A stretch of DNA of 64,000 bases from Candidatus Marinacidobacterium sp. (GCA_965220965.1 OZ244852.1:1184001-1248000), one strand, 5' to 3'. Counted from the stretch's first letter, positions 1-59,481 are shown. The notes: generated by a model from the letters alone, not told the origin. Made by a program: numbers and translations.

Positions 1-228
1 CACGCCGTGGAGCGGCCCACGCCAGTCGCCGGCCGCGATCTCGCGTTCGGCCTCGGCGGCCCGCGCCCGGGCGTGCTCGCCGGTCACCGTGATGAACGAG
101 TTGATCAGCGGGTCCACGCTCTCGATGTGCGCCAGGTGGGCCTCCACGACCTCCACCGGCGAGAGCTCCCGGCTCCGGAACCGCTCCGACAGCTCGCGCG
201 CCTCCAGCCGGCAGAGCTCCGGAATCAC
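1..228 (-). CDS. Amidase (GatA/amidase signature family), N-terminal part, runs off the window start
   Basis: Not in the ORF track. GTG at 228 overlaps the upstream stop (GTGA) and reads MIPELCRLEARELSERFRSRELSPVEVVEAHLAHIESVDPLINSFITV...WRGPLHGV, a typical amidase N-terminus. Confidence 0.85.
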   Translation of the reverse strand, partial: MIPELCRLEARELSERFRSRELSPVEVVEAHLAHIESVDPLINSFITVTGEHARARAAEAEREIAAGDWRGPLHGV

Positions 229-530
229 GACCCGTCCTCCGGTCCCCGCGCCCGAAACGTCACGGCCGGCTCCACCAGGTCATCCACCTCGAGGTCGCGC
301 ACCGCCTGGAAGAACGCATGGTTCATCCGGACGGCGGGGAGGATCGTCTCCAGCCGGTCGGGCGCGAGCGGATGGTCCGTCATGGCGTTCGCCGCCTCGA
401 GCCGCGCCACCGTCGCGCCGTCGCCGCCCTCGGCGGCGCACCCCGCGAGCATCGCCGCCCCCGCGACCGGGGCGACCGCTGCGCCCCGCAGCACTCTCCG
501 GCGGCTGAACCGCGCTGCTTCCTGTCCCAT
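225..530 (-). CDS. Small Tat-exported lipoprotein, possibly a GatC/AtzG-like amidase partner
   Basis: SRRRVL twin-arginine motif, LAGC lipobox, C-terminal LEVDDLVEPAVTF reminiscent of GatC/AtzG; translationally coupled to the amidase. Confidence 0.65.
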   Translation of the reverse strand: MGQEAARFSRRRVLRGAAVAPVAGAAMLAGCAAEGGDGATVARLEAANAMTDHPLAPDRLETILPAVRMNHAFFQAVRDLEVDDLVEPAVTFRARGPEDGS

Positions 531-641
531 CGTGGCGCCTCCCGAAGCGGCCCGCCGGCGCGCGCGGCGCGCCCGTGGACCCCACCGGGGGGACCGCGCC
601 GCGCGCCTTCGCCGGCCGGCTGCTCGGCTATCCTATGCCCC

Positions 642-1361
642 GTGCTGCTGCGCGAGGCGGACCGGGAAGCGGTCCGCGCCCGGTGGAACGAGCTCGCGGG
701 ACCGGTGTCGGCGACGCTGACCACCCGCCGCCAGAGTCCGCTGGTGATTCCGGGGCGCGTGGAGTGCGAGTCGTGTCCGACGACCGAAGCGCTCGTCGGC
801 GAGCTGGCGGATCTCTCGGAGAACTTCCGGGTGGAGGTCCGTCAGGTGGACGACCATCCCGAGGGATCGCTTCCCGGGGGGCGGATCCCGGTGATCGAAC
901 TCGCCGGAGAGGCGAAGGGCCGGATCCGTTTCGTGGGGCTTCCGGTCGGCCACGAGTTCGGGAGCCTGGTGGACGCCGCGATCGCCGTGTCCGGCGGCCC
1001 CGGGTCCCTTTCGGAGGCCGCTTCGGCGACTCTGGAGTCGCTCACCCGGCCGGTTCACATTCAGGTGTTCACGACCCCCACGTGACCATGGTGCGCCCCG
1101 GCGGCCAGTCTGGCCGTCCAGTTCGCGGTCGCGAGCGAACACGTCTCGACCGACATCGTGCTCGTCCAGGAGTTCCCCGATCTGGCCCGGGCCTACTCGG
1201 TCAGCTCGGTGCCGCTGACGGTGATGGAGCCGGTGCGCAACGGATCGCCGGTGGCGGGGGAGGGGAGTTCCGTGCTGGGCGCCCGGCCCGAGGAGGTCTT
1301 CGTCGAGGCCATCGCCTCGGTGGGCGCGCCGGCCGGAGAGGAGACCGCCGGTGAGGCCTGA
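642..1361 (+). CDS. Protein disulfide oxidoreductase (PDO / AhpF N-terminal-like, two thioredoxin folds), probable selenoprotein with UPWC
   Basis: GTG 642, CESC first site, RFVGLPVGHEF, then VFTTPT-TGA(1083-1085)-PWC continuing in frame to TGA 1361. Joins track ORFs 318..1085 and 1158..1361, which share a frame. Confidence 0.85.
1100..1118 (+). promoter_or_regulatory. Putative bacterial SECIS hairpin
   Basis: GGCGGCCA-GTC-TGGCCGTC stem-loop (one G-U pair) after a 14-nt spacer from the UGA; apex resembles E. coli fdhF CAGGUCUG. Confidence 0.6.
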
Positions 1362-2901
1362 GGCCACCCGCCCGCCGCGCCATCCGGACGCCGACTGGCG
1401 GCTGACGCGCCGCCGGACGCTCCGGCTCCTCGGCGCCGGGACCGCGGGACTCGGGCTTGCGGCGGGACGGTCCGAAGCTCGGGCGGCGCCGTTCTCCGAC
1501 GAGGCGATCCGCGAGCTCGACCGGCAGATCCACCGGATCCGCCGCCGTTTCGGCCTCCGGCGGGCCATCGGGGTCCATGTGGAGCACCTGGAGTCCGGGG
1601 TCACGCTGTTCAGCCACAACCCCGACCGGGCCTACGTGCCGGCGTCCGGCCAGAAGCTCCCGATCATGGGCGCCTGCCTCCACTACCTGGGGCCGAACTA
1701 CCGGTTCAGCACCCGCTTCCTGGTGGAGGCGCCGCCCACCCCCGACGGCGTCATCGAGGGGCCGGTCCTCATCCGGGGCTCGGGCGACCCCAGCCTGAAC
1801 CGCCACGGCATGGACTTCATCGCCGACTCGCTGGCGGCGTACGGGATCACCGCGATCCGGGGCGAGATCATCCTGGACGACTCGTTCTTCACGCCCGAGG
1901 AGACCGACCAGCGGCTGGTGGCGCGGCGGATCCGCTACGACGAGCCGATCCTGAGCGCGCTGGGCTACCACTGGAACAAGGTCGAGGTCGCCGGGCTTCC
2001 GGAACTGGAGGGCGAGCGTCCGAAGCTGCGCGACGAGGGGTACGGCTACTTCGCGATCCAGAACCGCACCGTGCTGCGGAACTCGGGCCGGCCCTACATC
2101 CTCGCCCACCGGCGACCGAACCGGCGGGTGCGGATCGAGGGTCGGATCCGGGCCGACGGCGAGGAGCGGGTCACGCGTTTCACGGCGACCGAACCGGCCC
2201 TCTACTTCGGCTACGCCTTCCGCGGCAAGCTCATCGAGCGGGGGGTCAACGTCCCGGGTCTGCCGCGCCGCCGCACGCCCTCCGACCCCGACCTCCCGCT
2301 GCTCCTCTACCGGCACGACTCGGACCCCATGGCCCGGGTGGTCGAGTCGCCGGGGAAATACTCGAACAACTGGTCCGCCGAGCAGCTCCTGTTCGCGGTG
2401 GGGGCGCACCGCTGGGGCCCGCCGGGAACCCGCGAGAAGGGCGTCCGGGCCGTCGAGGAGTACCTGGTGGGCCTCGGGAATCCGTCCGGGAGTTTCACGA
2501 TCGACGACGGGTCCGGGCTCTCCCGCCGCAACCGGCTGACGCCCCGCCAGCTCGTGACCGTGGTGCGCGATCTTTACGGCCAGCCGGAGCTTCGCCACGA
2601 CTTCCTCGAGTCGCTCGCCCATTCGGGCATCAGCGGCACGCTCGAGCGGCGGATGCGCGCCGACGCCCTCCGGGGACGGGTCATCGCGAAGACCGGAAGC
2701 CTGGCGGGGGTGAGCTCGCTCTCGGGCGTGGCTTTTCCGTCGGACGGCCCCTCCGGCGACCCGTCTGGCGCCCCCTCCGGCGGAGACGAGCGCGCGCTCG
2801 CCTTCGCCGTCATCACGAACGGCCTCCGCACCCAGTGGAGCGGCGACGCGGTGGAGAACGAAATCGCCGCCGCGCTGGTCGAGTGGGGCGGCGCCACCTG
2901 A
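1351..2901 (+). CDS. dacB: D-alanyl-D-alanine carboxypeptidase/endopeptidase (PBP4, peptidase S13) with Tat-like signal
   Basis: PASGQK (SxxK), SNN (SxN), DGSGLSR and AKTGS motifs, GSGDP; LTRRRTLRLL signal. Confidence 0.9.
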   Translation: MRPEATRPPRHPDADWRLTRRRTLRLLGAGTAGLGLAAGRSEARAAPFSDEAIRELDRQIHRIRRRFGLRRAIGVHVEHLESGVTLFSHNPDRAYVPASGQKLPIMGACLHYLGPNYRFSTRFLVEAPPTPDGVIEGPVLIRGSGDPSLNRHGMDFIADSLAAYGITAIRGEIILDDSFFTPEETDQRLVARRIRYDEPILSALGYHWNKVEVAGLPELEGERPKLRDEGYGYFAIQNRTVLRNSGRPYILAHRRPNRRVRIEGRIRADGEERVTRFTATEPALYFGYAFRGKLIERGVNVPGLPRRRTPSDPDLPLLLYRHDSDPMARVVESPGKYSNNWSAEQLLFAVGAHRWGPPGTREKGVRAVEEYLVGLGNPSGSFTIDDGSGLSRRNRLTPRQLVTVVRDLYGQPELRHDFLESLAHSGISGTLERRMRADALRGRVIAKTGSLAGVSSLSGVAFPSDGPSGDPSGAPSGGDERALAFAVITNGLRTQWSGDAVENEIAAALVEWGGAT

Positions 2902-2923
2902 GCGAACCGCCGGTCGCCCCGGC

Positions 2924-4021
2924 ATGAAGCCCATCCCCGGGCTCGACCCTCCGGAGTACGTCGCCTGGCGCGAGGATCCGGAGGTGCTCGCCGGGTTCGG
3001 CCGGACCCTCGAGGCGGATCCGGCGCGGCGGGAGATCGTCGAGGGGCTACCCAGGGATCTGCGCCTGCGGCTCTATGAGGGGCTCGTTCGCAACCGGCTC
3101 CACGACCTGCAACTGAAGCGCTGGGTCCGCTCCGGCGTCCTCTCGAAGGCCTGGCTGGGTCCCGGAGAGGAAGCGGTCACCGTCGGCGCCTGCCACGCGC
3201 TCGGGGAAGGGGACGTGGTCGGCCCGATGATCCGCAACGCCGGCGCGCTCCATGAACGGGGCGTCCCCCTGGTGGACATGTTCCGGGGTTCACTCGGGAC
3301 CGCCGACGGCCCCACGAGGGGGCGGGACATCCACTTCGGCGACCTGAAGCGCGGCGTCATGGGGCCGATCAGCATGGTCGGCTCGCTCGTTCCGGTGTGC
3401 GCCGGCATGGCGCTGGCGTTTCGTCTGCGGGGGGAGCGGCGCGTCGCGCTCACCTGGGCGGGCGACGGAACCGTCGGCACGGCGGGGTTCCACGAAGGGA
3501 TGACCACCGCGGTCTCGATCCGCGCCCCGCTCATCGTGGTCGTCCAGAACAACCGCATCGCCCTCGGCACGCCGCTGGAGGAAGGCGGCGAGACACGCCT
3601 GGAAGCGCTCGGACCCGCCTACGGCGTCCCCTCGCTGCGCGCCGACGGGAACAACGTGCTGGACTGTTTCGCGGCGGTGCGGCAGGCGCGGGAGCTGGCG
3701 CTCCGCGACGAACGCCCGGTCCTCATCGTGGCGCACACGTTCCGGATGGGAGGCCACGCCACCCATGACGAAGGCGTCAGCCGGCAGCTCCTTCCGTCGG
3801 AACGCTTCGAGCACTACGGCGCGCGGGACCCGGTGCGGGTCTACCGCGCGTTCCTGCGGCGCGGCGGCGCCGGGGAGGGGCCGATTCCGGAGGCCGAACT
3901 CGCGGGGCTCGAAGCCCGCGTCGAGGCCGAGGCCGACGCGGCGGAAGCCGACGCCCGGCGCTCGCAGCGCGACGCCCGGCCCGATCCGGCGACCGCGACC
4001 GAGGGCGTGTTCGCCGGCTAA
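2924..4021 (+). CDS. TPP-dependent 2-oxoacid dehydrogenase E1 alpha subunit
   Basis: GDG...VQNN TPP-binding motif, GEEA, ADGNN, FRMGGHATHD. Confidence 0.85.
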   Translation: MKPIPGLDPPEYVAWREDPEVLAGFGRTLEADPARREIVEGLPRDLRLRLYEGLVRNRLHDLQLKRWVRSGVLSKAWLGPGEEAVTVGACHALGEGDVVGPMIRNAGALHERGVPLVDMFRGSLGTADGPTRGRDIHFGDLKRGVMGPISMVGSLVPVCAGMALAFRLRGERRVALTWAGDGTVGTAGFHEGMTTAVSIRAPLIVVVQNNRIALGTPLEEGGETRLEALGPAYGVPSLRADGNNVLDCFAAVRQARELALRDERPVLIVAHTFRMGGHATHDEGVSRQLLPSERFEHYGARDPVRVYRAFLRRGGAGEGPIPEAELAGLEARVEAEADAAEADARRSQRDARPDPATATEGVFAG

Positions 4022-4068
4022 CTGCTTACCCGGCTACCGGACTGCGTTCGGGCCGGCCAGCGCCGGTG

Positions 4069-4512
4069 CTACTCCCGGCGGCGGCCGTTCGCCGGGAAGT
4101 GGTTCAGGCCGAGGCGCGCCGCCGCGCGGTCCGTCTGGTCCACGATGGCGGCGGCGCTGATCCCGAGCGCGATCACCAGCGCTTCGCTGATCTGCTCCTT
4201 GGTGGCGCCGGCGCCGAGCGCCTTCTTGATGTGTCCGTCGAGGCACCCCTCGCACTTGGCCAGCACCGAGCACGCGATGGCGATCAGTTCCTGGGTGCGG
4301 GTGTCGAGGCTGCGCTTGTCGGAGAAATAGGTCTCCTTGTAGAACTGCCCGTAGATCGCCTTCATCCGCGGCTCGAGCATGGAGTACGAAGCCGGAGCGC
4401 GTCGGGGCGTCGGGGCGGCGGCGGATTCCTCCGCCGGACTCTCATCCGCTTCCGGGTCGAAGTCGATCCCGGGAATCCGCGCCTCCGCGGAGCGAGCACC
4501 GTCCTGCGCCAT
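4069..4512 (-). CDS. Carboxymuconolactone decarboxylase / AhpD-like protein
   Basis: LDTRTQELIAIACSVLAKCEGCLDGH...ALGAGATKEQISEA with CxxC. Start uncertain (alternative ATG at 4380). Confidence 0.85.
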   Translation of the reverse strand: MAQDGARSAEARIPGIDFDPEADESPAEESAAAPTPRRAPASYSMLEPRMKAIYGQFYKETYFSDKRSLDTRTQELIAIACSVLAKCEGCLDGHIKKALGAGATKEQISEALVIALGISAAAIVDQTDRAAARLGLNHFPANGRRRE

Positions 4513-4712
4513 ATCCGATTTGCCTCACGCCCGCCCGAGGAACGGGCCGGGACTTCGTGTTACGCACGGCGGGCGACCGGTCCGGCCGCGTCCGCTGCTT
4601 TCGCCTGAACGGGGCGCAAAGGTTACCACCGCCCCCCTCGACGGCCCCGCCCCGGAACAGGTTCCCTTGCGAGGGAAGGGGAGTCGGCGCTCCGGAGTGC
4701 CCGCCAGAGCTG

Positions 4713-6491
4713 CTAGCTCGGCCAGAAGACCGGGATCAGCAGGCTGGCGGTGACGAGCAGGATGAGGTTCAGCGGGCCGCCCACCTTGATGAAGTCGGCG
4801 AACCGGTACCCGCCCGGCCCGTAGATCATCACGTTCGTCTGGTAGCCGAACGGCGTGACGAACGAGGCCGAGGCCCCGAACATGACGGCGATGAGCAGCG
4901 CGTAGGGGTTCATGCCCGCCTGGGTGGCGGCGAAGATCGCGATCGGCGTCAGCATCACCGCGGTCGCCGCATTCGACATGACGGCGCTGACGAGAGCCGT
5001 CAGCAGGTAGAAGGCGGCGACGAGTCCCGTCTCTCCCAGCGGAGCGGCGAGACGCACCACCCCGCCCGCCAGCAACTCCGCCGCTCCGGTGCTCTCGAGC
5101 GCCACGCCGAGCGGGACGAGGCCGGCCAGCACGAAGACGACGAGCCACTCCACCTCGGCGTAGATCTCCTCGATGTGCACGCAGCGGGTGAAGACCATCA
5201 GTCCGACGCCGGTGAGCGCCGCCGTCATGATGTCGAGCAGGCCCAGACTGGCGCTGAGAACGACGCCCACCATGATCGCGGCGGCGACTCCGGCGCGCGG
5301 CCTTCCCCCGGTCGGCGTCTTCACTTCGGCCATCGGCACGAAGCCGGGCTCGTCGGCCAGCCCCTCCAGCGCGTGGGAGGTTCCGTGAACGAGAAGGAGG
5401 TCCCCGACCCGCAGCGAGAGCTCCGCCAGCCGTTCCTTGACGGTGATCCCTCCGTGCTGGATCGCCAGCACGGTGGCCTGGTACCGCTGCGCAAAGCCCA
5501 GATCGCGCAGTGTCCGGCCGATGAGCCCGGAACCGGGCGCCACCAGCAGCTCGACCAGCCGGCCCCGCCCGGCGCTCAGATCGAGTTCGTGCTCCTCGCC
5601 TTCGCGCGGCGTCCGGAGCCGTTGGCGGCGGGCGAGTTCCAGAAGCTGCTCGGCGGATCCCTGGACGTGGAGGATGTCCCCCGGGCGGATGTGCCGTTCG
5701 CCGTGCGGCGCGGTGATCTCCCGTTCTTCGCGGGTGATGTCGAGGACGGTGACGTCGTAGCGCTCGCCCCAGCCCAGCTCCGCCAGCGAAAGGCCGTTCG
5801 CCGGCGAGTCCTCCGGAACGTGCAGTTCCGTGACGAACCGCCGCACGTCGTATTTCCGGGAGAGGTCGGGGGGCCGGATCCGCCGGGGCAGCAGGAGGCG
5901 GCCGACGGTGAAGAGGTAGAGCAGGCCGACCCCGAGACAGATGAGGCCCAGCGGGGTGATGGAGAACATGCTGAGCCCGTCGAACCCGCGGCGAAGCGCC
6001 TCGCCGTGCACCACCAGGTTCGTGGAGGTCCCCATCAACGTGACCGTGCCGCCGAGGATCGAGACGAAGGAGAGCGGCATCAGGTAGCGGGAGGCCGGCT
6101 CCTTCGCCTGTTCGGCGAGGGCGATGAAGACCGGGATAAACACCATCACGACCGCGGTCGTCATCAGGAACGGCGACAGCACCGAACAGACGAGGCAGAG
6201 CAGGAAGAGGCGCCGGTACTTCCCGCCGAGAGGCGCGGTTCGCGCCCACGCCCCGATCGCGGCGACGAGACCGGTCTTCCGGAGCCCCAGCCCCAGCACC
6301 ATCATCGCGGCGACGGTGACCGTGGCGCGGCTCGAGAGGCCCGACACCGCTTCGGCCGGCGTCAGGATCCCGGTCAGGAGGAGTACGACCGGGATCGACA
6401 TCGCGACCTGGTCCAGCCGCAGCCGGTCCAGCGCAAACAGGACCAGCGCCCCCACGGTCAGCGCCAGGACCAGAACGATCTCGAAGGTCAT
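4713..6491 (-). CDS. SLC13-family permease with TrkA-C domains
   Basis: Multiple TM segments, GTSTNL, SNAAT and TPFGYQTNVMIYGPGGYRFADF motifs, central soluble TrkA-C repeats. Confidence 0.9.
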   Translation of the reverse strand: MTFEIVLVLALTVGALVLFALDRLRLDQVAMSIPVVLLLTGILTPAEAVSGLSSRATVTVAAMMVLGLGLRKTGLVAAIGAWARTAPLGGKYRRLFLLCLVCSVLSPFLMTTAVVMVFIPVFIALAEQAKEPASRYLMPLSFVSILGGTVTLMGTSTNLVVHGEALRRGFDGLSMFSITPLGLICLGVGLLYLFTVGRLLLPRRIRPPDLSRKYDVRRFVTELHVPEDSPANGLSLAELGWGERYDVTVLDITREEREITAPHGERHIRPGDILHVQGSAEQLLELARRQRLRTPREGEEHELDLSAGRGRLVELLVAPGSGLIGRTLRDLGFAQRYQATVLAIQHGGITVKERLAELSLRVGDLLLVHGTSHALEGLADEPGFVPMAEVKTPTGGRPRAGVAAAIMVGVVLSASLGLLDIMTAALTGVGLMVFTRCVHIEEIYAEVEWLVVFVLAGLVPLGVALESTGAAELLAGGVVRLAAPLGETGLVAAFYLLTALVSAVMSNAATAVMLTPIAIFAATQAGMNPYALLIAVMFGASASFVTPFGYQTNVMIYGPGGYRFADFIKVGGPLNLILLVTASLLIPVFWPS

Positions 6492-6568
6492 GTCAGGGCG
6501 CCGACCTCAGAACCGAGCGGCTGTCGGTTGTTCCGATCAGGATCCCGGCCGGCGAGGGGTAGGGGAGG

Positions 6569-6847
6569 CTACCGGCCGAAGCGGCGCGGAGCGAACCGCG
6601 AACCCCAGGGCGTCCGGGGCTTCCTGCGGCGCGGCGGCGGCTTCGGGGGCCTGCTCTCCGGCGTCTCCGACGGAGCGGGTTCCGGCCGCTCGAGATTCAG
6701 GACGACCGGTTGGAGCTGCCGCTCCAACTCTTCCTGCCGTGGTTCCGGGTCCACCCACCTCAGGAAGAACCTCTCAACCCAGTTGAGCCCGTCCCCACGC
6801 TCCCGCCGGACGCTGCGGGAGTCTGTTTCGCCCGTTGATCCGCCCAT
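6569..6847 (-). CDS. Hypothetical ~92-aa protein with Pro/Arg-rich basic tail
   Basis: ATG 6847 preceded by GGAGAG; 3' part of track ORF 6569..7063; fills the gap between the permease and the repeat array. Confidence 0.45.
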   Translation of the reverse strand: MGGSTGETDSRSVRRERGDGLNWVERFFLRWVDPEPRQEELERQLQPVVLNLERPEPAPSETPESRPPKPPPRRRKPRTPWGSRFAPRRFGR

Positions 6848-6898
6848 CGCCCGCTCTCCCAGAGGATAACGCCGGGAAACCGGGCGCGGATCTGGTTG

Positions 6899-7114
6899 CC
6901 GACCTGTTCGCCGCGGCGCTCTTTCCCTATCGGAAGTTGAAATCCAGGGGATTTCAACTTCCGGCGCGTGGCGACCTGCTTCGGCGGTCCCGCAGTTCCT
7001 TATCGGAAGCTGGAATCCTCCCGAACTTCGACTTCCCGCGGCGACTTGCTTCCGCGGTCCCACAGTTCCTTATCGGAAGTCTGAATCGTTCCGATTCAGA
7101 CTTCCGATAAGGAA
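6899..7114. repeat. Three tandem ~70-bp imperfect repeats, each ending in an inverted repeat (hairpin)
   Basis: Units at ~6899, 6971 and 7041 share CGAC(C/T)TG...GCGG...TTCC(C/T)TATCGGAAG. Perfect 15-bp stem 6931-6963 (loop AGG), perfect 23-bp stem 7066-7114 (loop TTC), middle unit degenerate. Confidence 0.9.
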
Positions 7115-7127
7115 TCTTATGTTAAGT
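7100..7127 (+). other. dif: dif-like XerC/XerD recombination site (probable chromosome dimer resolution site)
   Basis: ACTTCCGATAA-GGAATC-TTATGTTAAGT, 11-6-11 layout. Right arm is 10/11 identical to the E. coli XerD arm TTATGTTAAAT; left arm resembles B. subtilis ACTTCCTAGAA. Intergenic; GGGNAGGG polarity flips here. Confidence 0.8.
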
Positions 7128-7194
7128 AGTGAGGTTGGAGCGCGCGGGAGCGGCTACAAGGAGGCGGTTCCAGGAAACAGGGAACGGACGCCCG

Positions 7195-8118
7195 TCAGTC
7201 CTGCTGCGACTCCCGGAACTCCGTGACCGCGCCGTGGAAGACGAAGAGCGCATCGCGGTCATCCGTCGGCGACTCGAAGTTGTAGGTCCGGCCACCCAGG
7301 ACCTTGAGCCGGAGGTTGTTCGCGATGTAATCGAACTCGAACGCCTCGACCTGCGCGAACGGAAGCTGGAAGGCGTCCCGGTGGTCCGTCCGGTAGTCGA
7401 ATCCCTCCGGACCGACATGGAGGACGCCGCTGCAGGACCCGAAGCGGTGCTTGTGGACCACTTCCACGTTGACATCCAGCGTCGCGGTCGGCGCGACCAG
7501 ATCGAAGCGCTCGCGCACCGGAGCGCGCTCGACATGGACCCGCCGGTTCTGGACCTCGTAGCCCTCGGCGGACACCGTGAGCCGGTATTCGCGGGGCTGG
7601 AGATCCCCGATGGTGACCGGCGCGTTGCCCTTGAAGTTCCGGTCGAGGAAGACCATCGCCCCGGGCGGGTTGGAGTCCACCACGATGGAGCCGAGCATCT
7701 CGGCCAGATCCACCGGCACGGAACGCGTCCGGCCGGCGCGGATCGTGATTTCGGCCTCGAACGGGTGGAAGTTCTCGCGCTCGACGCGGAGGTCGTGCGT
7801 TCCGGCGTCGAGGTCTTCCCAGCGTCCCGGGGCCGACCCCAGTTGGCGGCCGCCGAGGAAGACCATCGCGCCCTCGGCCCCGACGACTTCGAGCGCCCCG
7901 GTCGTGGGGGCTGGCGGCGGAGGCGGCCGCTCGGGGGCGTCCGGTTCGGGAGCCGGTTCCGGCTCGGCGGCGGCCGGCGCCTCGTCCACCGGCTCGGAGG
8001 CTGGCTCGTCCCCTCCCCCGCACCCGACGAGCAGGAACGCGCCGAAGAGCGCCAGAAGAAGCGCCGCCAGCCGCGCCGGCGCAGCGTGACTCGGGTGGGG
8101 CCACTGCATCGGAATCAC
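7195..8118 (-). CDS. PEGA domain-containing lipoprotein
   Basis: LLVGC lipobox, Pro/Glu linker, two PEGA-like repeats (GSIVVDSNPPGAMVFLD...G.APVTI). GTG 8118 overlaps the upstream stop (alternative ATG 8109). Confidence 0.8.
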   Translation of the reverse strand: MIPMQWPHPSHAAPARLAALLLALFGAFLLVGCGGGDEPASEPVDEAPAAAEPEPAPEPDAPERPPPPPAPTTGALEVVGAEGAMVFLGGRQLGSAPGRWEDLDAGTHDLRVERENFHPFEAEITIRAGRTRSVPVDLAEMLGSIVVDSNPPGAMVFLDRNFKGNAPVTIGDLQPREYRLTVSAEGYEVQNRRVHVERAPVRERFDLVAPTATLDVNVEVVHKHRFGSCSGVLHVGPEGFDYRTDHRDAFQLPFAQVEAFEFDYIANNLRLKVLGGRTYNFESPTDDRDALFVFHGAVTEFRESQQD

Positions 8119-8621
8119 GCCTCCAGCCGCCGGTAGCCCCGGTTCTGGTAGACGAGCGGCGCCGCGTCCGGCCGCTCGACGGCGGCATCGACGATGCGGC
8201 CGATGAAGAGCGTGTGGTCCCCTTCCCGGTGCGCCGACGCGACTTCGCAGTCCAGCCACCCGATGCAGCCGTCGAGGCGCGGGGGCGCGCCCTCCGGCGA
8301 CGACCCCTCCGCATGGGCGCCGGCGAACTGCTCTGCGCTCCCGAGGCCCGGCCGGGCGAAGTGGTTCGACACGTCCCGCTGGTCCTCTCCCATCAGGTGG
8401 ACCCGGAACCGGCCCGCGGCGATCGCCTCGTGGGCGCGCGCCTCCACCGCAATCGACACCAGGACGAGCGGCGGCTCGAGGCTCACCGAGACGAACGAAC
8501 TCACCGTGATCCCCCGCGGGCCGTCGGCGCCGCGGGCCGTCACCACCGTGACCAACTGGGGCGCCCGCCGCATGAAGTCGCGGAGCAGCTCGCCCGCATC
8601 CGGCGGCGTCGTCACCTGCAA
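8115..8621 (-). CDS. Flavin reductase (DIM6/NTAB family)
   Basis: VTVVT, GITVSSFVSVSLEPPLVLV, GDHTLFIG and PLVY motifs. Confidence 0.92.
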   Translation of the reverse strand: MQVTTPPDAGELLRDFMRRAPQLVTVVTARGADGPRGITVSSFVSVSLEPPLVLVSIAVEARAHEAIAAGRFRVHLMGEDQRDVSNHFARPGLGSAEQFAGAHAEGSSPEGAPPRLDGCIGWLDCEVASAHREGDHTLFIGRIVDAAVERPDAAPLVYQNRGYRRLEA

Positions 8622-8651
8622 GGCGTCACCCGCCGGAGACCCGGCCCCGGC

Positions 8652-9146
8652 TCACCCGGCGAGCTCGGTGAAGTCCGCGGCGTAGCTGACCGCCACGGCG
8701 CCGCGCAGCGTGTTCGCGAGCGGGCAGCCCCGCTCATGGAAGCGCAGCGCCCGTTCGGCGTCCTGGCGCTTTCCCGCCGGCAACCGCAGCTTGTAGCGGA
8801 TCCGGATGGCCCGGAGCGCCATGACCCCGTCCTCATCCACGATGTCGCCCTCGACATCGGCGGAGAGCCGGTCCGGCTGGCTCGGAATGCCGCGTGCTTC
8901 GAGCGCCCGCCCGAACGTGCCCAGCATTCAACCGCCGGTGGCGGCGACGACGTAATCGAGGGTCGCGGGAAGCTCCTCCGCCGGGGTCACGCCGTAGAAG
9001 GCCGCGATCCCGCTGTGGACCCCGAAGCGGACCGGCGTCTCGAAGTCCTCGAGGAAGGCCTGCCGCACCGGGCCGGCCTCCTTGACCACCCGCGCGTGGC
9101 AGGTGTGGACGACCCGCGCCGGACTCTCGCCGGCGGCCGGAGTCAA
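8652..9146 (-). CDS. OsmC-like protein, probable selenoprotein
   Basis: Track ORFs 8928..9146 and 8652..8927 are contiguous in one frame: TLDYVVAATGG-TGA(8928-8930)-MLGTFGRALEARG...GCPLANTL. The TGA is at the first OsmC catalytic Cys position. TTG start overlaps the upstream stop. Confidence 0.85.
8898..8915 (-). promoter_or_regulatory. Putative SECIS hairpin
   Basis: TTCGGGC-GGGC-GCTCGAA stem-loop after a 12-nt spacer from the UGA, G-rich loop. Confidence 0.55.
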
Positions 9147-9709
9147 GGGGACTCCCCGAAGATGTCGGCGTGGAGCGCCTTGACCGGAGCCCCGCTGCCG
9201 GCCAGCGACAGGTCGAGGTCCAGCGTCGTGCTGGTCGGGGCGCTGCAGGCGTTGTCGGTGCAGAGCTGGTAGCGCACCAGCACCGAGGCGGCGGTTTTTC
9301 CCGAGGACTTCGAGGCGGCGGTCACCGGAATGCGGATCGCGACCTTGCCCTCGTAGAGATCGAACTCCCCGAGTCCCGAGAGGTCCCGGCGGATGGGCGC
9401 CGGGTAGTCGACCTCCCCGGCCTCGAACTCGGCGGGTTCGATGAGCTCCACGACGGTTCCCGTCGGGAACGGCTCCTCGGGACCGTAGAGGTGGTACCCG
9501 GGATCCAGTTCGGCCACGACCGCGACCTCGAACCGGTCCCCGGGGCGGATCGGTGACTGGGAGGCGACCAGCTCGAACCGCGCCGCGTTGTCCCAGTCGG
9601 GGATCTCGGGGATCTGCGCGGCCGCGCTCACCGGAACGAGCGCGAACGGCAGCACGAAGGGCAGCAGCCGGCGCCGGAGCGCAACGGCGGAGATGCGGGA
9701 AGAGGACAT
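9143..9709 (-). CDS. Secreted stand-alone DsbD N-terminal (alpha) domain protein
   Basis: Signal peptide ending SAAAQ, PGYHLY, YEGKV and YQLCTDNACSAP (C-x4-C); ATG 9709 with an AGGAGG RBS. Confidence 0.85.
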   Translation of the reverse strand: MSSSRISAVALRRRLLPFVLPFALVPVSAAAQIPEIPDWDNAARFELVASQSPIRPGDRFEVAVVAELDPGYHLYGPEEPFPTGTVVELIEPAEFEAGEVDYPAPIRRDLSGLGEFDLYEGKVAIRIPVTAASKSSGKTAASVLVRYQLCTDNACSAPTSTTLDLDLSLAGSGAPVKALHADIFGESP

Positions 9710-9726
9710 GAGCGTCGGACCTCCTG

Positions 9727-10323
9727 TCAGGAACCGGGCAGGCCGGCGATCTCGTCGAGGATCTCGCCCGGCGCGGTCCGGTCGCGGTAATTCACCCATA
9801 CGTTCACGAAGCGGACGACCCCTTCCCTGTCCACGATGATCGTGGCGGGGTGCGCGAGTCCCTCGCGCTCGGTGCCGTCATGGTCCGTGTTGCGGATCCC
9901 GTAGGCGGAGATCACGTCAGCCCCGTCCACCAGGATGGGAAAGCTCCAGTCGTTCTCGGAGAGCCAGGTCTGCGTCTCCGCGGCGTCGTACATCGAGATG
10001 CCGAGCACGGTGGCGTCCACCGACTCGAACCGTTCCAGGGACGTTTGCAGCTCGCCGAGCTGCGCCTTGCAGAATGGTCACCAACCGCCGCTGCGGAAGA
10101 ACTCGAGAACGACGGGGCCGCGTTCGACGAGCTCCGACAGCCGGTAGGCCGTCCCGTGGGCGTCCCGGAGTTCGAAGTCCGGGGCGGGCTGGCCGACCTG
10201 CACGGTCGAAGTCTCCATCCCCTGCGCCGCAGCGGAGGGGGCGAGACCCCATCCGAGGCCCAGCGTGAGAACGGCGATGGCGAGGCTACGCGCCACGAAG
10301 CCGGTAGCGGAGTTCGAGAGCAT
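9727..10323 (-). CDS. Exported AhpC/TSA (peroxiredoxin-like/redoxin) protein, probable selenoprotein with UPFC
   Basis: Signal peptide, VGQPAPDFEL, GPVVLEFFRSGGW-TGA(10078-10080)-PFCKAQLGEL continuing in frame into track ORF 9727..10020 (PATIIVDREGVVRF). Confidence 0.88.
10047..10063 (-). promoter_or_regulatory. Putative SECIS hairpin
   Basis: Perfect GCAGCTC-GGC-GAGCTGC stem-loop after a 14-nt spacer from the UGA. Confidence 0.65.
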
Positions 10324-10332
10324 GGCGAACCG

Positions 10333-10341
10333 ATTCTAGCA
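10333..10341 (-). promoter_or_regulatory. Extended -10 promoter element of the redox operon
   Basis: TGcTAGAAT 9 nt upstream of ATG 10323; no SD, so a leaderless or very short leader is likely. Confidence 0.5.
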
Positions 10342-10378
10342 TGTCGAACGCGGCGTTCCACCCCCGCGAAAGACGCGC

Positions 10379-10391
10379 CAAGTCATTGATA
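10379..10391. promoter_or_regulatory. IHF-consensus site within an AAGTC...GACTT inverted repeat
   Basis: CAAGTCATTGATA matches YAANNNNTTGATW; AT-rich patch in a GC-rich intergenic region. Confidence 0.4.
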
Positions 10392-10435
10392 TATGGCGAC
10401 TTACGGCGCATGTCGGCGCGCCGACACCGTCAGGA

Positions 10436-11314
10436 TCATCCGGAAGCGGAGCGATCCCCCGCTCCATCCCGCTCCGCGCCGTCGCCGCCACCGTCCCCCT
10501 GGTTCGATTCGAGCTGCCGGAGCAGGTCGCGCAGGGCGTCGATGACCTCGGTCTCCTCGACTTCGCTGCGCCGGAACGTCATGTGGAGACGGAACGGGCT
10601 TCCCTTGGGGGCGTACCGGAACACGAAGGGCCGCGCCCGCCCCCTGCCCGCCCGCTTGCGCTTCACCGGCGGCTCGCTCACCCCGGACGCGAGACGCTGC
10701 ACGCATTCGGCCATCGCCTCGGGCGTCGCCTCGCGCGCCACCCGCAGGAGCTGCCGGCGGGAGCGCACGCCGGCCGCCTGACACATCTCGCGGATCTCCG
10801 GGGGGATGTTGAGCAGCGCGAGGGACTCGGTGATGGAGGTCCGGGGTCGCCCGACCCGGCGCGACAGCGACTCGTGGGTGTGGCCGTGCTCCCGGATCAT
10901 CGCCTCGTAGGCGGCCGCCTCCTCGAACGGAGACAGGTCGTCGCGCAGGAGGTTCTCGACGATCGCGAGCTCGAGCGACTCCGCCTCGTCGGCGTCCCGC
11001 TCGACACAGGGGATCTCGCGCATCCCCACCTGGAGCGCGGCGCGGAAGCGGCGTTCCCCGGCGATTATCTGGAAGTCCTTCGGTCCGAGGCGGCGCACCA
11101 GGATGGGCTGCAGCAGCCCCTGCTCGCGGATCGATGTGGCGAGAGCCTCGAGCGACCCGATGCGCTGGCGGGGCTGGTCGGGGTTGGCGTGGATCTGGGC
11201 GACCGGGATCAGCCGGTGGCGGTTCGCCGGTTCGTCCGTGACCAGGCTGGCCACGTAGTGCCGGTCCCGCTTGCGCAGGCCGACCGCCTCAGGCAGACCG
11301 GTTCGCTTTGACAC
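10436..11314 (-). CDS. parB: ParB/RepB/Spo0J family partition protein
   Basis: NPDQPR, GLLQPILVR, IIAGERRFRA (CTPase motif), ENLLRDDLSPFEEA and an HTH region. Confidence 0.9.
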   Translation of the reverse strand: MSKRTGLPEAVGLRKRDRHYVASLVTDEPANRHRLIPVAQIHANPDQPRQRIGSLEALATSIREQGLLQPILVRRLGPKDFQIIAGERRFRAALQVGMREIPCVERDADEAESLELAIVENLLRDDLSPFEEAAAYEAMIREHGHTHESLSRRVGRPRTSITESLALLNIPPEIREMCQAAGVRSRRQLLRVAREATPEAMAECVQRLASGVSEPPVKRKRAGRGRARPFVFRYAPKGSPFRLHMTFRRSEVEETEVIDALRDLLRQLESNQGDGGGDGAERDGAGDRSASG

Positions 11315-12065
11315 GTTCGAGGACTTCCCCGGCGAGCCGCCGGTAGTCGTGAGCGCCGGCGGAGTCCGGCGCGAACGAAAAGATGGACTCCCGGTAGGCC
11401 GGACTCTCCTCCAGCCTCACGTTCCGCCGGACCTTCGCCCGGAAGGTGGCGGCGCCGAAGTGGGTCCGGATGCGGCGCACGGCGTCCTGCGAGATGCGCG
11501 TCCGGGCGTCATGCATGGTGATCGCCACCCCGAGCAGCGCCAGGTCCGGGTTCGGCCGGCGACGGATCTGCTCCACGGTGTCGAGCAGGTCGTCGGCGCC
11601 CTCGAGGGCGTAATAGGAAGGCTGCAGCGGGATCAGCAGGTAGTCGCTCGCGACCAGCGCGTTCACCGTGATGAGTCCCAGGGTCGGCGGGGTGTCGATC
11701 ACGATCAGGTCGAAATCGTCCAGGACGTGCTGGATCCGGTCCCGCAGCCGGTAGTGGGCGTCGATGTCGCCGAGCAACTGGCGCTCCAGCTTGGCGAGGG
11801 ATATGCGCGACGGCGCCATGGAGAGCCGCTCGATGGCGGTCGGGCGGATGATGTCAGCAAACCGCGCTTCCCCCGTCAGGGCCTCCAGCATCGAAGGCGC
11901 TTCCGGGTCCGGGTCGAGGTAGCTGACCGAGGCGTTCGCCTGCGGATCCAGGTCCACCAGCAGCGTGCGCTCGCCGGCCTGCGCGAACGCCGCCGCCAGG
12001 TTGACCGAGGTCGTGGTCTTGGCGACGCCGCCCTTCTGGTTCGCGACGGTGATCGTCGCTCCCAC
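11289..12065 (-). CDS. parA: ParA/Soj family ATPase
   Basis: NQKGGVAKTT deviant Walker A, DLDPQAN, IDTPP. Confidence 0.92.
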   Translation of the reverse strand: MGATITVANQKGGVAKTTTSVNLAAAFAQAGERTLLVDLDPQANASVSYLDPDPEAPSMLEALTGEARFADIIRPTAIERLSMAPSRISLAKLERQLLGDIDAHYRLRDRIQHVLDDFDLIVIDTPPTLGLITVNALVASDYLLIPLQPSYYALEGADDLLDTVEQIRRRPNPDLALLGVAITMHDARTRISQDAVRRIRTHFGAATFRAKVRRNVRLEESPAYRESIFSFAPDSAGAHDYRRLAGEVLERVKANRSA

Positions 12066-12081
12066 GCGCGCCTCCCCTTCC

Positions 12082-12579
12082 CTACTGGGAGTCGCCGAGG
12101 TCCTCGTCGTCGAGGGACTCCAGCCAGTCGGCGAGCGCCTCGCTGTCTTCCGGCGGCTCGCCGTCGGCGATCAGCTCGTCTCCGCTCTGGACGCTCCGCT
12201 CGATGACGCGGGCGTGGGCGTAGATCGGGGCGCGGGTGCGGAGCGCGATGGCGATCGCGTCGCTCGGGCGCGCATCGATCACGAGCCGCAGGCGCTTGCG
12301 CTCGATGTGGATGTGCGCGTAGAAGGTGTTCCGCCGCAGGTCGTGGATCACGACCTTCAGAACGCGGGCGTCCAGCTCGCGCAGCAGCTCGCGGATCAGA
12401 TCGTGGGTCAGGGGCCGCGGGGGCTCGTAGTTTTCGACCTGGAGGCCGATGGCGCGGCACTCGAGCGGCCCGACCCGGATGGGGAGCTCGCGGTTGCCCG
12501 GCTCCTCCTTGAGCATCACGACCGCCGAGTTGTCCCTCGGGAGCATGAAGATCGCCTTGATGCTCATCTCAACTTCCAT
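12082..12579 (-). CDS. Bifunctional nuclease family protein (DUF151)
   Basis: LPIRVG, PPRPLTHDL and IDARPSDAIAIALR; ATG 12579. Confidence 0.9.
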   Translation of the reverse strand: MEVEMSIKAIFMLPRDNSAVVMLKEEPGNRELPIRVGPLECRAIGLQVENYEPPRPLTHDLIRELLRELDARVLKVVIHDLRRNTFYAHIHIERKRLRLVIDARPSDAIAIALRTRAPIYAHARVIERSVQSGDELIADGEPPEDSEALADWLESLDDEDLGDSQ

Positions 12580-14047
12580 CGCGCACTCCCTGGAACAACG
12601 AGGGCGCTCCACCGGCCAGCACCGGAAGCGGAATCTCCGGCTGCCGGCGGGACGGCGCGGCGAGCGTCGAAGCGGGTCGCTCCGGCGACGTGAGTTCGCC
12701 CCGGAGACTGTTGGGGCCGAACCCGGTGATGGCGACCCGGGCGAAGGCCCCGACGAGCGACGCCGGGCCCGGGAAGTTGACCACCCGGTTGTCCTCGGCG
12801 CGGCCCGCCAGGAAGTCGCCCCGGCGACTCGGACCTTCGACAAGAACCTCCACCTCGCGACCCACGAGCGCGGCGTGGAGCTCGAGCTGGATCGCGCGCT
12901 GCCGCGCCTGAAGCTCCATCAGCCGCGCGGTCTTCTCGCCGTCCGGCACATCGTCGGGCAGGCGCTTCACCGCGAGCGTGTGGGGCCGCTCGGAGTACTT
13001 GAAGGAATAGGCGGAAGAAAACCGGACTTCGTCGAGCAGGCTGAGCGTGTCCTCGAATTCCGCGCGGGTCTCGCCGCAGAACCCGACGATCAGGTCGGTG
13101 GAGAGCGCGAGGCCGGGCGCCTTCTCCCGGGCGTCCGTGACCAGCCGCAGGAACTCCCCGCGGCTGTAGCCGCGCCGCATCCGCTCGAGCACGCTGGTCG
13201 AGCCGGACTGCGCCGGGAGGTGCATGTGCGGCATGAGCGGACCGCCCGCGGCGAACCGCTCCATCAGCGCCGGGCTGAAGTCCTTCGGATGGGGGCTGGT
13301 GAACCGGATGCGGCGGATCCCCGAAACGGCGGAGACGGCGTCGATCAGCGCCGCGAAGTCCCGCCCGTCCTCCGGATCCCGGTAGGAGTTCACGTTCTGC
13401 CCGAGAAGCTGGATCTCGCGGAAGCCGTCGCCGGCGAGGGCCTCCGCTTCGCGGACGACCGACCCGACCGTGCGACAGCGTTCCCTGCCCCGGGTGAAGG
13501 GCACGACGCAGAACGAACAGAAGTTGTCGCAGCCCTCCATGATGGTGATCCACGCCTTGACGCCGGGGACGCGCTCGATCTGTTCCGGCGGGATGTCGAG
13601 GTTGTCGGCGTGGCGTCCGGTTTCCACGATCCGGGTCTCGCCGTCGAGCAGACGCCGCACGATCTGCGGAAGACGGACCAGCGCCTGCGTGCCCAGCACG
13701 AAGTCCACCGCCGGGGCGCGGGCGAAGATCGCCTCGCCTTCCTGCTGGGCGACGCAGCCGGCGACGCCGATCAGCAGCGGGCGCGAAGCCCGGGCGCGGC
13801 CCTTGCCGCCCACGAGCTGCTCGACCCGGGAAAACACCTTCTCCTGGGCTTTCTCGCGCACCGAGCAGGTGTTCAGCACCACGATCTCGCCGCCGGGATC
13901 GGCCTCTCCCCTCGCCGGGCGGGCGCCGAGCGACCCGAGCGCCGCCGCCATCTTCTCCGAGTCGTGGACGTTCATCTGGCAGCCCCAGGTCTCGATGCGG
14001 TATCGAAGACCGGGGTCGCCCGGCGAACGGTCCTGAGCGGGGGGCAT
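12569..14047 (-). CDS. miaB: tRNA-2-methylthio-N6-dimethylallyladenosine synthase
   Basis: TWGCQMNVHDSE, NTCSVREKA, radical SAM CxxxCxxC (GCDNFCSFC), C-terminal TRAM domain. Confidence 0.95.
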   Translation of the reverse strand: MPPAQDRSPGDPGLRYRIETWGCQMNVHDSEKMAAALGSLGARPARGEADPGGEIVVLNTCSVREKAQEKVFSRVEQLVGGKGRARASRPLLIGVAGCVAQQEGEAIFARAPAVDFVLGTQALVRLPQIVRRLLDGETRIVETGRHADNLDIPPEQIERVPGVKAWITIMEGCDNFCSFCVVPFTRGRERCRTVGSVVREAEALAGDGFREIQLLGQNVNSYRDPEDGRDFAALIDAVSAVSGIRRIRFTSPHPKDFSPALMERFAAGGPLMPHMHLPAQSGSTSVLERMRRGYSRGEFLRLVTDAREKAPGLALSTDLIVGFCGETRAEFEDTLSLLDEVRFSSAYSFKYSERPHTLAVKRLPDDVPDGEKTARLMELQARQRAIQLELHAALVGREVEVLVEGPSRRGDFLAGRAEDNRVVNFPGPASLVGAFARVAITGFGPNSLRGELTSPERPASTLAAPSRRQPEIPLPVLAGGAPSLFQGVRDGS

Positions 14048-14056
14048 GCCCGGACG

Positions 14057-15859
14057 TCAGGCTCCGGGAGTCCCGCCCGCGTCGGAAACCGCTTCCCGCG
14101 GCCGCGGCGGGTCGCCCGGCGACGCGGCGCCGCGCAGAAGGTCCCGGGCGTTATCGCGGGCGGCGTCCGTGACTTCGGGACCGGCGAGCATGCGGGCGAT
14201 CTCCTCGGTGCGATGCTCATCCCTGAGGTGGCGCACCCGAACCGAGCCGTCGGATTCTAGTTTTTCGACCCTCAGGTGGCGCCCCGCGAGCGCCGCCACC
14301 TGCGGCAGGTGGGTCACGCAGAGCACCTGCCGGCCGCCCGAGAGGCGACGGAGCCGCCGCCCCACCGCATCGGCGACCCGCCCGGAGGTCCCGGCGTCCA
14401 CTTCGTCGAACACCAGAGTCGGACCGCTCCCCTCCCCCGCCGCCGCGCGCCCGGCCCCGGCGGCCTTGAGCGCGAGGAAGAACCGGGACGACTCGCCCCC
14501 GGAAGCGACTTCGGCCAGCGGGGCCGGAGGGAGTTCGGGGTTCGCGCTGAAGCGGAACGCGACCCGGTCCCAGCCCTCGGCCGTGAAGCGGTCAGAAGGA
14601 GGTTCGTCGAAGGACCCGTCCGCGGGCGCCGGGCGAGGATCCAGCCGGATCTCGAAGCGGGCCTTGGTCAGCCCCAGCCCGGGCAGCTCCGCCAGGACCG
14701 CGGCCGAAAGCTCCAGGGCGGCCTCGCCCCGCGCCGCGCTCAGTTTCCAGGCCGCCCGCCGATAGGAGGCCGCCGCCTCCTCGACCGCGGCGGCGGCTTC
14801 GGCGCGCGCCGCTTCCCGGCGCCCCAGCGAGGCCAGTTCGGTGCGGATCTCCTCGGCGCGCGCCAGCAGCGCCTCGGCGCCGCCCGCGCCCGCGGTGTGG
14901 CGACGCTCGAGCCGCCGCAGGAGCGCCAGCCGGTCCTCGATCCAGGCGAGGCGCTCCGGACCGGCGTCGATCTCCGCGCGCCGGTCGCGGACGGCGGCGG
15001 CGAGATCCTCCACCTCGGCCACCAGGTCGGGACGCCCCTCCAGGAGGGCGGCGGTGGCCGGATCGATCCCGGCGACCGCCTCCAGTTCGCGGAGAGCGGC
15101 GGCGAGCTGCGCGCCGGCGGCGCGGTCCGAACCGTAGAGCGCCTCCCAGGCGGACCCGAGCCCTTCGAGGAGCCGCTCGCTCCGACCCAGGACGGTGCGC
15201 TCTTCGAGCAGCGCCTCCTTCTCGCCCGGTTCGGGCGCGGCGGCCTCGATTTCGCGGAGCGCGGCCTCGAGGGCGCGCCGGTCTTCGCCCGGGGTCGCAT
15301 CGCCGGCCAGCGCCTCGGCGCACGCCATCGCCTCGCGCAACCGCTGGTGCGCGGCGCGGACTTCCGCGAGCTCCCGGTGGTGGCCGCCCGCCCCGTCGAC
15401 CGCCTCCCGCGCGGCCCCGGGGCGCAGGAGCGCCAGGTGCTCCCCCTGCCCGTAGACCTCGGCGAGAAGCGCGCCGACGCGCCGCAGCGCGCCGACCGGG
15501 ATGGCGCTCCCGTTGAGTGATGCGCGGCTCACGACCGTCCGCCCTCCGGGACCCGGCCGCAGCACGCGCCGGATCACCAGTTCGCCGTCCTCCACCGGAA
15601 CGCCGGCCTCGTCGAGCGCCTCCGAAAGAGACCCCGCACGCGAAGCGGGCGCCTGGAACCCGGCTTCGACCACCGTGCGGTCGCCGTGGGGACCGATCTG
15701 CCGGGCGCGCCCGCGGGCCCCGAGCGCGAGCCCGAGCGACTCGAGGAGGAGGCTCTTCCCCGCCCCGGTCTCGCCGGTGAGGACGTGGAGACCCTCGTCG
15801 AACTCGACGGAGACATCCCGCAGGAGCGCCAGGTTCCGGACGCGGAGCCAGAGGAGCAT
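14057..15859 (-). CDS. recN: DNA repair protein RecN
   Basis: LTGETGAGKS, YGQGEH, ASGGESSR, LVFDEVDAG, VLCVTHLPQVAA, EIARML. Confidence 0.92.
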   Translation of the reverse strand: MLLWLRVRNLALLRDVSVEFDEGLHVLTGETGAGKSLLLESLGLALGARGRARQIGPHGDRTVVEAGFQAPASRAGSLSEALDEAGVPVEDGELVIRRVLRPGPGGRTVVSRASLNGSAIPVGALRRVGALLAEVYGQGEHLALLRPGAAREAVDGAGGHHRELAEVRAAHQRLREAMACAEALAGDATPGEDRRALEAALREIEAAAPEPGEKEALLEERTVLGRSERLLEGLGSAWEALYGSDRAAGAQLAAALRELEAVAGIDPATAALLEGRPDLVAEVEDLAAAVRDRRAEIDAGPERLAWIEDRLALLRRLERRHTAGAGGAEALLARAEEIRTELASLGRREAARAEAAAAVEEAAASYRRAAWKLSAARGEAALELSAAVLAELPGLGLTKARFEIRLDPRPAPADGSFDEPPSDRFTAEGWDRVAFRFSANPELPPAPLAEVASGGESSRFFLALKAAGAGRAAAGEGSGPTLVFDEVDAGTSGRVADAVGRRLRRLSGGRQVLCVTHLPQVAALAGRHLRVEKLESDGSVRVRHLRDEHRTEEIARMLAGPEVTDAARDNARDLLRGAASPGDPPRPREAVSDAGGTPGA

Positions 15860-15995
15860 CTAGGGGAGGAATCGCCTGGGGAATCGTCGCGGAGCGCGGG
15901 GGTATTCGGCGGGGTACGAACGGCGCCCGAATGCGCCTCCGCCGAACCGCGCGGATCCTACGCCCGGTGGACTCCCGGTAGGCCGCCGCGGCGGC

Positions 15996-18467: not shown

Positions 18468-18496
18468 GGGACGACCTCCCGGGGCTGTTGAGGGCA

Positions 18497-59421: not shown

Positions 59422-59481
59422 CCGACCCGGCGGCTCATCCGCGTCGGAGGGTCCGACGCGGAGGGCCGCCGCTCTTCGGAG

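Follow-up and report, generated by a model that had tools for sequence, protein, structure and literature searches.

Three redox genes carry an in-frame TGA codon

We analyzed a 64-kb stretch of DNA from Candidatus Marinacidobacterium sp. (GCA_965220965.1 OZ244852.1:1184001-1248000), hereafter called the window, which has a GC content of 71% and contains no N. Three genes for predicted redox proteins in this window each carry an in-frame TGA followed by a hairpin. They encode a protein resembling protein disulfide oxidoreductase (PDO) and the N-terminal part of AhpF, an OsmC-like protein, and a peroxiredoxin-like (Prx-like) protein of the AhpC/TSA type. The three codons are candidate selenocysteine (Sec, or U in protein sequences) codons, and the hairpins are candidate selenocysteine insertion sequence (SECIS) elements. 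An earlier note, made from the sequence alone, had pointed to the three recoded genes; all three in-frame TGAs were found, and a Pfam domain extends across each of them (Thioredoxin_3 at residues 139-195, OsmC at residues 62-154 and AhpC-TSA at residues 43-172, respectively). A search of the window for in-frame TGA codons flagged seven sites, including these three. The other four were discarded, being the junction between the OsmC stop and the flavin reductase gene, the stop codon of the ThrC gene, and two antisense frames (in RecN and in a giant open frame described below).

The PDO-like gene (642..1361, plus strand) starts with GTG at 642, ends at a true TGA stop at 1359-1361 and encodes 239 aa with two predicted thioredoxin folds. 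Its in-frame TGA lies at 1083..1085 (predicted Sec148) in the context TPT-U-PWC. The N-terminal unit of the protein carries CESC and the C-terminal unit carries U-PW-C, where U stands for the first Cys of a CPxC motif. Residues 34-226 align with PDB entries 1j08 and 1a8l, in which CPYC is found opposite U-PW-C. Orthologues begin with MLLREADR. The NCBIfam model TIGR02187 (PDO_seleno_TRX) matches the protein over model positions 2-208 of 209 with 162.5 bits, below its curated cut-off of 185.

The OsmC-like gene (8652..9146, minus strand) has a TTG start at 9146 and a TGA stop at 8654-8652. It encodes 164 aa, with its in-frame TGA at 8928..8930 (predicted Sec73) in the context ATGG-U-MLG. The Pfam domain PF02566 (OsmC) scores 45.3 bits against a gathering cut-off of 27.5. 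No sequence match to this protein was found in the PDB. Its predicted structure has a predicted local distance difference test score (pLDDT) of 96, and the top PDB fold matches are OsmC/Ohr proteins, with template modelling (TM) scores of 0.65-0.81. The domain score, the fold and the two conserved Cys columns (U73 and C137) thus all place the protein in the OsmC/Ohr family, and we take U73 to be the peroxidatic position of that family. The score against the NCBIfam model NF041052, “OsmC-related (seleno)protein”, is 26.5 bits, short of the cut-off of 95.

The Prx-like gene (9727..10323, minus strand) encodes 198 aa with a signal-peptide-like N-terminal segment, an AhpC-TSA domain (Pfam, 102.8 bits) and a U-PF-C motif; its product is predicted to be an exported thiol:disulfide oxidoreductase. 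The in-frame TGA is at 10078..10080 (predicted Sec82), in the context GGW-U-PFC. When aligned with Mycobacterium tuberculosis AhpE, the protein has U opposite the Thr of TxxC and C85 opposite the peroxidatic Cys, so the site would be a UxxC of the thioredoxin type. Judged from its sequence, the protein is a member of the AhpC/TSA fold family in which a predicted thioredoxin-type UxxC replaces the TxxC of peroxiredoxins. Against the nearest NCBIfam model, SelL_rel_redox (SelL-related redox protein), it scores 51 bits, with a cut-off of 120. The proposal that each TGA sits at a catalytic Cys is right in that the aligned column carries Cys in homologues, but the U of the Prx-like protein takes the place of the peroxiredoxin Thr, which corresponds to the first Cys in a thioredoxin-type CxxC, and not that of the peroxidatic Cys. 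Similarly, the TGA-CCA-T context noted in both UxxC genes is present, but it merely encodes U-P-[W/F], and CCA is kept in only 14 of 17 Prx and one of three PDO sequences.

The TGA codons are conserved in related genomes

Species-representative genomes were scanned with the Prx-like protein, which gave 80 loci. Sixteen of these, of 10-20 kb (L001-L015 and L051), were treated as related loci; their Prx-like proteins are 50-75% identical to that of the window, and they come from metagenome-assembled genomes (MAGs) labelled Vicinamibacteria, Vicinamibacteraceae, Acidobacteriota or “Candidatus Marinacidobacterium”. The Prx TGA is found at the same codon in all 16 related loci, and the OsmC TGA in all 15 orthologous loci. 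The PDO-like gene is present in L002 and, in part, in L008, with the TGA in both; it was not found beside the S13 peptidase gene in L001 or L009.

Downstream of the TGA, the frame remains open for 114-116 aa in the Prx-like gene (16 of 16 loci) and for 89-96 aa in the OsmC-like gene (15 of 15). Identity to the window is similar upstream and downstream of the TGA, and neither a second stop nor a frameshift was seen in any relative. Such steady frames and even identity rule out decay of the downstream parts, which the earlier note had named as refuting evidence.

The residues aligned with the TGA point to a redox position. Of the 80 loci, 23 have TGA and 27 have Cys in the Prx column; Ser is found in 12, Thr in 8 and a gap in 8, and Gly and Ala occur once each. 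Full-length Prx homologues at 36-42% identity read WCPFC. In ten full-length OsmC homologues, the column of the TGA holds Cys in eight, Trp in one and Asp in one. The Trp belongs to the best full-length homologue, P0132 (47% identity), and may be a TGA rendered as Trp by the pipeline from which that record came.

This Trp is the one observation in favor of TGA being a sense codon, either Trp (table 4) or Gly (table 25), or being read by a near-cognate tRNA without dedicated machinery, and it may itself reflect how the record was translated. We consider such a reading extremely improbable. Eighteen family-supported genes of the window end at TGA, in-frame TGAs that sit within a gene and are flanked by coding sequence are limited to the three described here, the aligned residue in homologues is Cys rather than Trp or Gly, and the conserved hairpins would be left unexplained. 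The earlier conclusion that recoding is site-specific and does not stem from code 4 or 25 is thus upheld.

Ten further Prx homologues with an in-frame TGA were found in Planctomycetota, Acidobacteriaceae, Chloroflexia and other MAGs (L017, L018, L021, L022, L030, L035, L050, L060, L072 and L074), with the frame open for 110-203 aa after the TGA. The codon occupies the first position of the redox motif in seven of them and the second in three, as T-x-x-U in L060 and L072 and after a first-position Gly in L074. Neither the window nor the 16 related loci yielded another selenoprotein candidate.

Public gene calls break at the TGA codons

In public protein sets, gene calls from many MAGs break these three genes and their orthologues at the TGA, as the earlier note had anticipated. 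The nine closest Prx relatives in the protein library all stop at ...FFRSGGW. Likewise, all 11 PDO-like matches, the gene call of the window itself included, end at ...VFTTPT, just before the TGA. Among the best 150 of 553 OsmC representatives, 39 break at the TGA: 23 of them have their last residue just before U, and the other 16 begin with the Met that follows it.

These separate halves are also what would be predicted if the TGAs were real stops, that is, if the genes were pseudogenes, contained sequencing errors or were split, for example with a restart at the ATG directly after the OsmC TGA. The 16 OsmC calls that start after the TGA and the 23 that end before it (again among the best 150 of 553) fit such a split. 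Nevertheless, independent genomes retain the TGA of the Prx-like (16 genomes), OsmC-like (15) and PDO-like (2) genes, both halves are conserved, and neither a further stop nor a frameshift occurs. In addition, no start codon directly follows the TGA in the Prx-like or the PDO-like gene, and a split would divide one domain and discard the first redox residue. We therefore regard real stops as a very improbable explanation.

Since the gene calls are cut there, inventories of redox enzymes in these marine and soil Acidobacteriota are incorrect for these loci. The main value of the present findings lies in the correction of annotations and in the census of selenium use.

A hairpin follows each TGA codon

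Each in-frame TGA is followed after 12-14 nt by a hairpin with a stem of 7-8 bp and a loop of 3-4 nt beginning with G, just as first described. In the PDO-like gene, the hairpin (1100..1118, plus strand) begins 14 nt after the UGA and has an 8-bp stem and a GUC loop (-12.6 kcal/mol). That of the OsmC-like gene (8898..8915, minus strand) begins after 12 nt, with a 7-bp stem that includes one G-U pair and a GGGC loop (-8.2 kcal/mol). The Prx-like hairpin (10047..10063, minus strand) is again 14 nt from the UGA, with a 7-bp stem and a GGC loop (-10.1 kcal/mol).

To estimate how rare such structures are, we applied loose criteria: a stem of at least 7 bp with G-U pairs allowed, and a loop of 3-5 nt starting with G, located 9-17 nt after a TGA. 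On both strands of the window, 15 of 1440 TGA trinucleotides qualified, or 9 of 494 outside the giant repeat-rich open frame, three of these being the candidates. Only the three candidates combined a hairpin with coding-type GC content at third codon positions (at least 0.88) on both sides. The concern that hairpins might be equally frequent after true TGA stops was not borne out: one of the 18 stops of family-supported genes was followed by a hairpin, as against all three in-frame TGAs (Fisher P=0.003). With slightly wider criteria, 128 of 6336 TGAs qualified in the 16 related loci. The hairpins of the three families were not brought into register by MAFFT.

The sole SECIS mimic among the 18 stops lies behind the ThrC stop TGA (59419-59465, plus strand). 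There, between convergent genes, a perfect 11-bp stem with a GGG loop begins 16 nt after the TGA; it is probably a terminator.

The Prx hairpin has all seven pairs in the window and its 16 relatives (17 sequences), and on distinct alignment rows 98 of 98 cells are paired. One pair is G-C in five and A-U in 12 of the 17 sequences, a switch brought about by two synonymous changes (CAG/CAA and CTG/TTG). Among distinct sequences, the switch is seen in five of 14, and the observed covariation was reached by one of 500 shuffles. The other changes at this hairpin are compensatory, fall in the loop or lie just outside the stem. Around the hairpin, all 13 codons for invariant amino acids vary synonymously; inside it, the codons CTC and GAG never do.

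The window, L002 and L008 share the same PDO hairpin sequence but differ at synonymous sites close by. The OsmC hairpin does not vary between the window and 13 loci. In two more distant orthologues, L012 and L013, it has lost two pairs, and a different 8-bp stem with a GGA loop is found 18 nt after the UGA (L012:11791-11850 and L013:11750-11809), 6 nt further downstream than in the other 14 sequences. This looks like SECIS turnover within one gene family, in which the type of structure is kept and its exact place is not. The idea of a strictly conserved hairpin position must accordingly be given up.

Simple stem-loops also follow the TGA in nine of the ten further Prx loci, with stems of 6-9 bp located 10-19 nt after the UGA; the tenth, L060, has a more complex fold. 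The apical loops of the nine are AGUU, GUU, AGUUG, GGC or GAUUU.

Interpretation of the TGA codons

Taken together, we are highly confident that these three TGAs encode selenocysteine and that the genes are ordinary bacterial selenoprotein genes of an acidobacterium of the class Vicinamibacteria. In the established bacterial pathway, a short GC-rich hairpin within the coding sequence, here with its apical loop 19-22 nt after the UGA and starting with G-G or G-U, would be bound by SelB-GTP-Sec-tRNA(Sec). Sec would then be delivered to the ribosomal A site in competition with release factor 2 (RF2).

Several points weigh against this conclusion. Some concern the hairpins. The criteria of the frequency controls were chosen after the three hairpins had been seen, which makes the counts supportive rather than independent. 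Covariation is seen at only one pair, in the Prx hairpin, and a single evolutionary event may account for it. Moreover, Cys homologues also carry QL..LQ at the Prx hairpin, so that the protein may explain part of the nucleotide conservation. In the OsmC hairpin there is no covariation, and L012 and L013 contribute all 5 unpaired cells among its 91. The folding energies of 60-nt segments were no better than those of shuffled sequences (z = -0.29, -0.53 and -0.04); at 71% GC, energy alone is therefore uninformative here. No Rfam SECIS family matched in a scan of positions 1-20000 with E up to 10, which returned eight weak matches to unrelated families (miRNA, snoRNA and sRNA). Other points concern the proteins and the machinery. 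All three scores against NCBIfam selenoprotein families are under their curated cut-offs (162.5 against 185, 26.5 against 95 and 51 against 120 bits). A search confined to the window found no selA, selB, selC or selD within its 64 kb, and scans for tRNA genes were negative both for the window and for the 16 related loci.

Because the genes of the Sec machinery were not found in the window, we infer, rather than observe, that the inserted residue is Sec and not Cys delivered by a SelB-like system, and that SelB binds the hairpins. Insertion of Cys at UGA would involve a tRNA(Sec)-like tRNA(Cys) (selC*) brought by a SelB paralogue to the same type of hairpin; a selC*-type system is described in excerpts of a review (PMC7609411). 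It would need the same in-frame TGA, hairpin and Cys column, and nothing in the window separates it from Sec insertion. We nonetheless give it only a slim chance. The passages of that review dealing with the system report it from Firmicutes, Thermodesulfobacteria, Nitrospirae and Proteobacteria, and not from Acidobacteria (PMC7609411), whereas Acidobacteria are listed among the Sec-using phyla in the portions available of two other sources (PMC1794560, PMC12013277). In addition, Sec forms are known for all three protein families (PMC1088965, PMC1794560).

With selenocysteine as the inserted residue, the three products can be given putative roles. The PDO/AhpF-N-like protein would be a cytoplasmic disulfide oxidoreductase with a U-x-x-C site. 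The Prx-like protein would act as an exported U-x-x-C thiol:disulfide oxidoreductase, and the DsbD-alpha-like domain protein encoded by the adjoining gene, also predicted to be exported, would be its likely electron donor. The OsmC-like protein would be a hydroperoxide reductase of the OsmC/Ohr type with Sec at the first conserved Cys position, and its gene adjoins one for a flavin reductase.

Organization of the gene cluster and neighboring features

The Prx-like and OsmC-like genes belong to a minus-strand cluster located directly downstream of parA-parB, in the order Prx-like, DsbD_N, OsmC-like, flavin reductase and PEGA lipoprotein. The gene directly after the Prx-like gene (9143..9709) encodes a protein that has the DsbD N-terminal (alpha) domain on its own; the protein carries a C-x4-C motif and a signal peptide. 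Its start was set at the ATG at 9709, which has AGGAGG upstream, in place of the position 9799 given in the list of open frames. The stop TGA of DsbD_N and the likely TTG start of the OsmC-like gene overlap in TTGA at 9143-9146, with GGGGAG upstream, which suggests translational coupling inside the cluster. The flavin reductase gene (8115..8621), of the HpaC/FerA-like type, shares its frame with the OsmC-like gene. It is a separate gene with its own start, TTG at 8621 or GTG at 8615, and it was thus ruled out as a second product of read-through. The PEGA-domain lipoprotein gene (7195..8109) is the last of the same-strand cluster.

The order ParA-ParB-Prx-DsbD_N-OsmC-flavin reductase is kept in 15 of the 16 related loci, and L001 has no ParA match. 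The DsbD_N gene follows the Prx-like gene in 15 loci; in L014, this gene and the OsmC gene are both missing. All 16 loci contain the flavin reductase gene. Based on this conserved adjacency and on the signal-peptide-like N-termini, DsbD_N and the flavin reductase may serve as reductants of the Sec enzymes. These two conserved gene pairs, Prx-like with DsbD-alpha and OsmC with flavin reductase, offer testable ideas on electron donors. More broadly, the cluster by parAB (exported UxxC Prx-like, DsbD-alpha, Sec-OsmC, flavin reductase and PEGA lipoprotein, in 15 of 16 Vicinamibacteria genomes) could be an undescribed selenium-dependent module for peroxide/disulfide defense, comprising a member of a Sec-OsmC subfamily outside the NCBIfam model whose SECIS was rebuilt 6 nt downstream in one sublineage, and the selenoproteome of this lineage may exceed that known for Acidobacteriota. 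We put this forward tentatively and consider it rather doubtful.

Beyond the cluster, a gene for an AhpD/CMD-family protein with a C-EG-C motif, a Cys form without TGA, lies at 4069..4512 on the minus strand. The CMD/AhpD CxxC, DsbD_N and flavin reductase genes mentioned as neighbors in the earlier note are thereby all accounted for.

Two repeat regions were also observed in the window. Just downstream of the PEGA lipoprotein gene, positions 6923-7114 contain three tandem units of about 70 nt, AT-richer than their surroundings, each with one palindrome; the last palindrome has perfect 23-nt arms (7066-7088 and 7092-7114). A CRISPR array was considered for this region and rejected, as the sequence between the palindromes is repeated too (84% identity). 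The giant open frame (19777-54018, plus strand) runs for 11,413 codons from stop to stop and contains fibronectin-III, bacterial Ig and He_PIG repeats. It consists mostly of 285-nt tandem units, of which 54 lie at 27799-43176 and another 12.4 at 21139-24663, and its product looks like a giant surface or adhesin-like protein.

Comparison with known SECIS elements and selenoprotein families

The three hairpins resemble the upper stem-loop of the Escherichia coli fdhF element. That upper stem-loop is sufficient when located about 11 nt from the UGA. The bacterial SECIS model of bSECISearch, as given in the excerpted description of a 2026 review, has a loop of 3-9 nt, an upper stem of 4-16 bp, a distance of 16-37 nt from UGA to loop, a minimum free energy of at most -7.5 kcal/mol, and a G at the first or second loop position, after which G or U is usual (PMC13188914). 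All of these constraints are satisfied by the hairpins of the PDO-like, OsmC-like and Prx-like genes, with spacings of 22, 19 and 21 nt and loops starting with GU, GG and GG, respectively. They lie at the short end of the range, and nothing in them falls outside the model as described there. They are therefore ordinary elements, and the “minimal SECIS” proposed in the earlier note does not form a new class.

The protein families also have known selenoprotein members. Prx-like (UxxC) and OsmC-like proteins are among the selenoprotein families in the excerpted part of the Sargasso Sea study (PMC1088965), and a homologue of the amino-terminal domain of AhpF is listed as a selenoprotein family in excerpts of a later survey, which also lists four selenoproteins for Acidobacteria (PMC1794560). 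According to the portion available of a further source, one acidobacterium has three known selenoprotein genes (PMC12013277). Our literature searches found no paper on this gene cluster; supplementary tables of the cited papers may list these families or organisms.

The Prx-like protein shares its predicted AhpC/TSA fold and UxxC motif with the Prx-like selenoproteins of Zhang and Gladyshev (PMC1088965, PMC1794560). In the 80 loci, the family is represented by both predicted Sec and Cys forms. The member described here differs in coming from Vicinamibacteria, in its signal-like N-terminus and in the stand-alone DsbD_N gene next to it in 15 of 16 genomes. Like TIGR02187 proteins and the structures 1a8l and 1j08, the PDO-like protein has two thioredoxin-fold units with CxxC-type sites, and it differs in its score, which is under the cut-off. 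The OsmC-like protein shares its predicted OsmC/Ohr fold with known OsmC-like selenoproteins, and, as in these, Sec would occupy the first conserved Cys position of two. Its local motif is U-[ML]-x-G-T, as compared with the UxxT given for the OsmC-like family in the excerpted Sargasso Sea data (PMC1088965). In view of this motif and of the 26.5 bits obtained against the NF041052 cut-off of 95, the gene probably belongs to an OsmC subfamily of its own that bears Sec. This subfamily is widespread, and gene callers usually break its genes in two. Overall, the findings leave the knowledge of Sec decoding unchanged: the lineage and the members are new, and the SECIS elements and the protein families are of known kinds.

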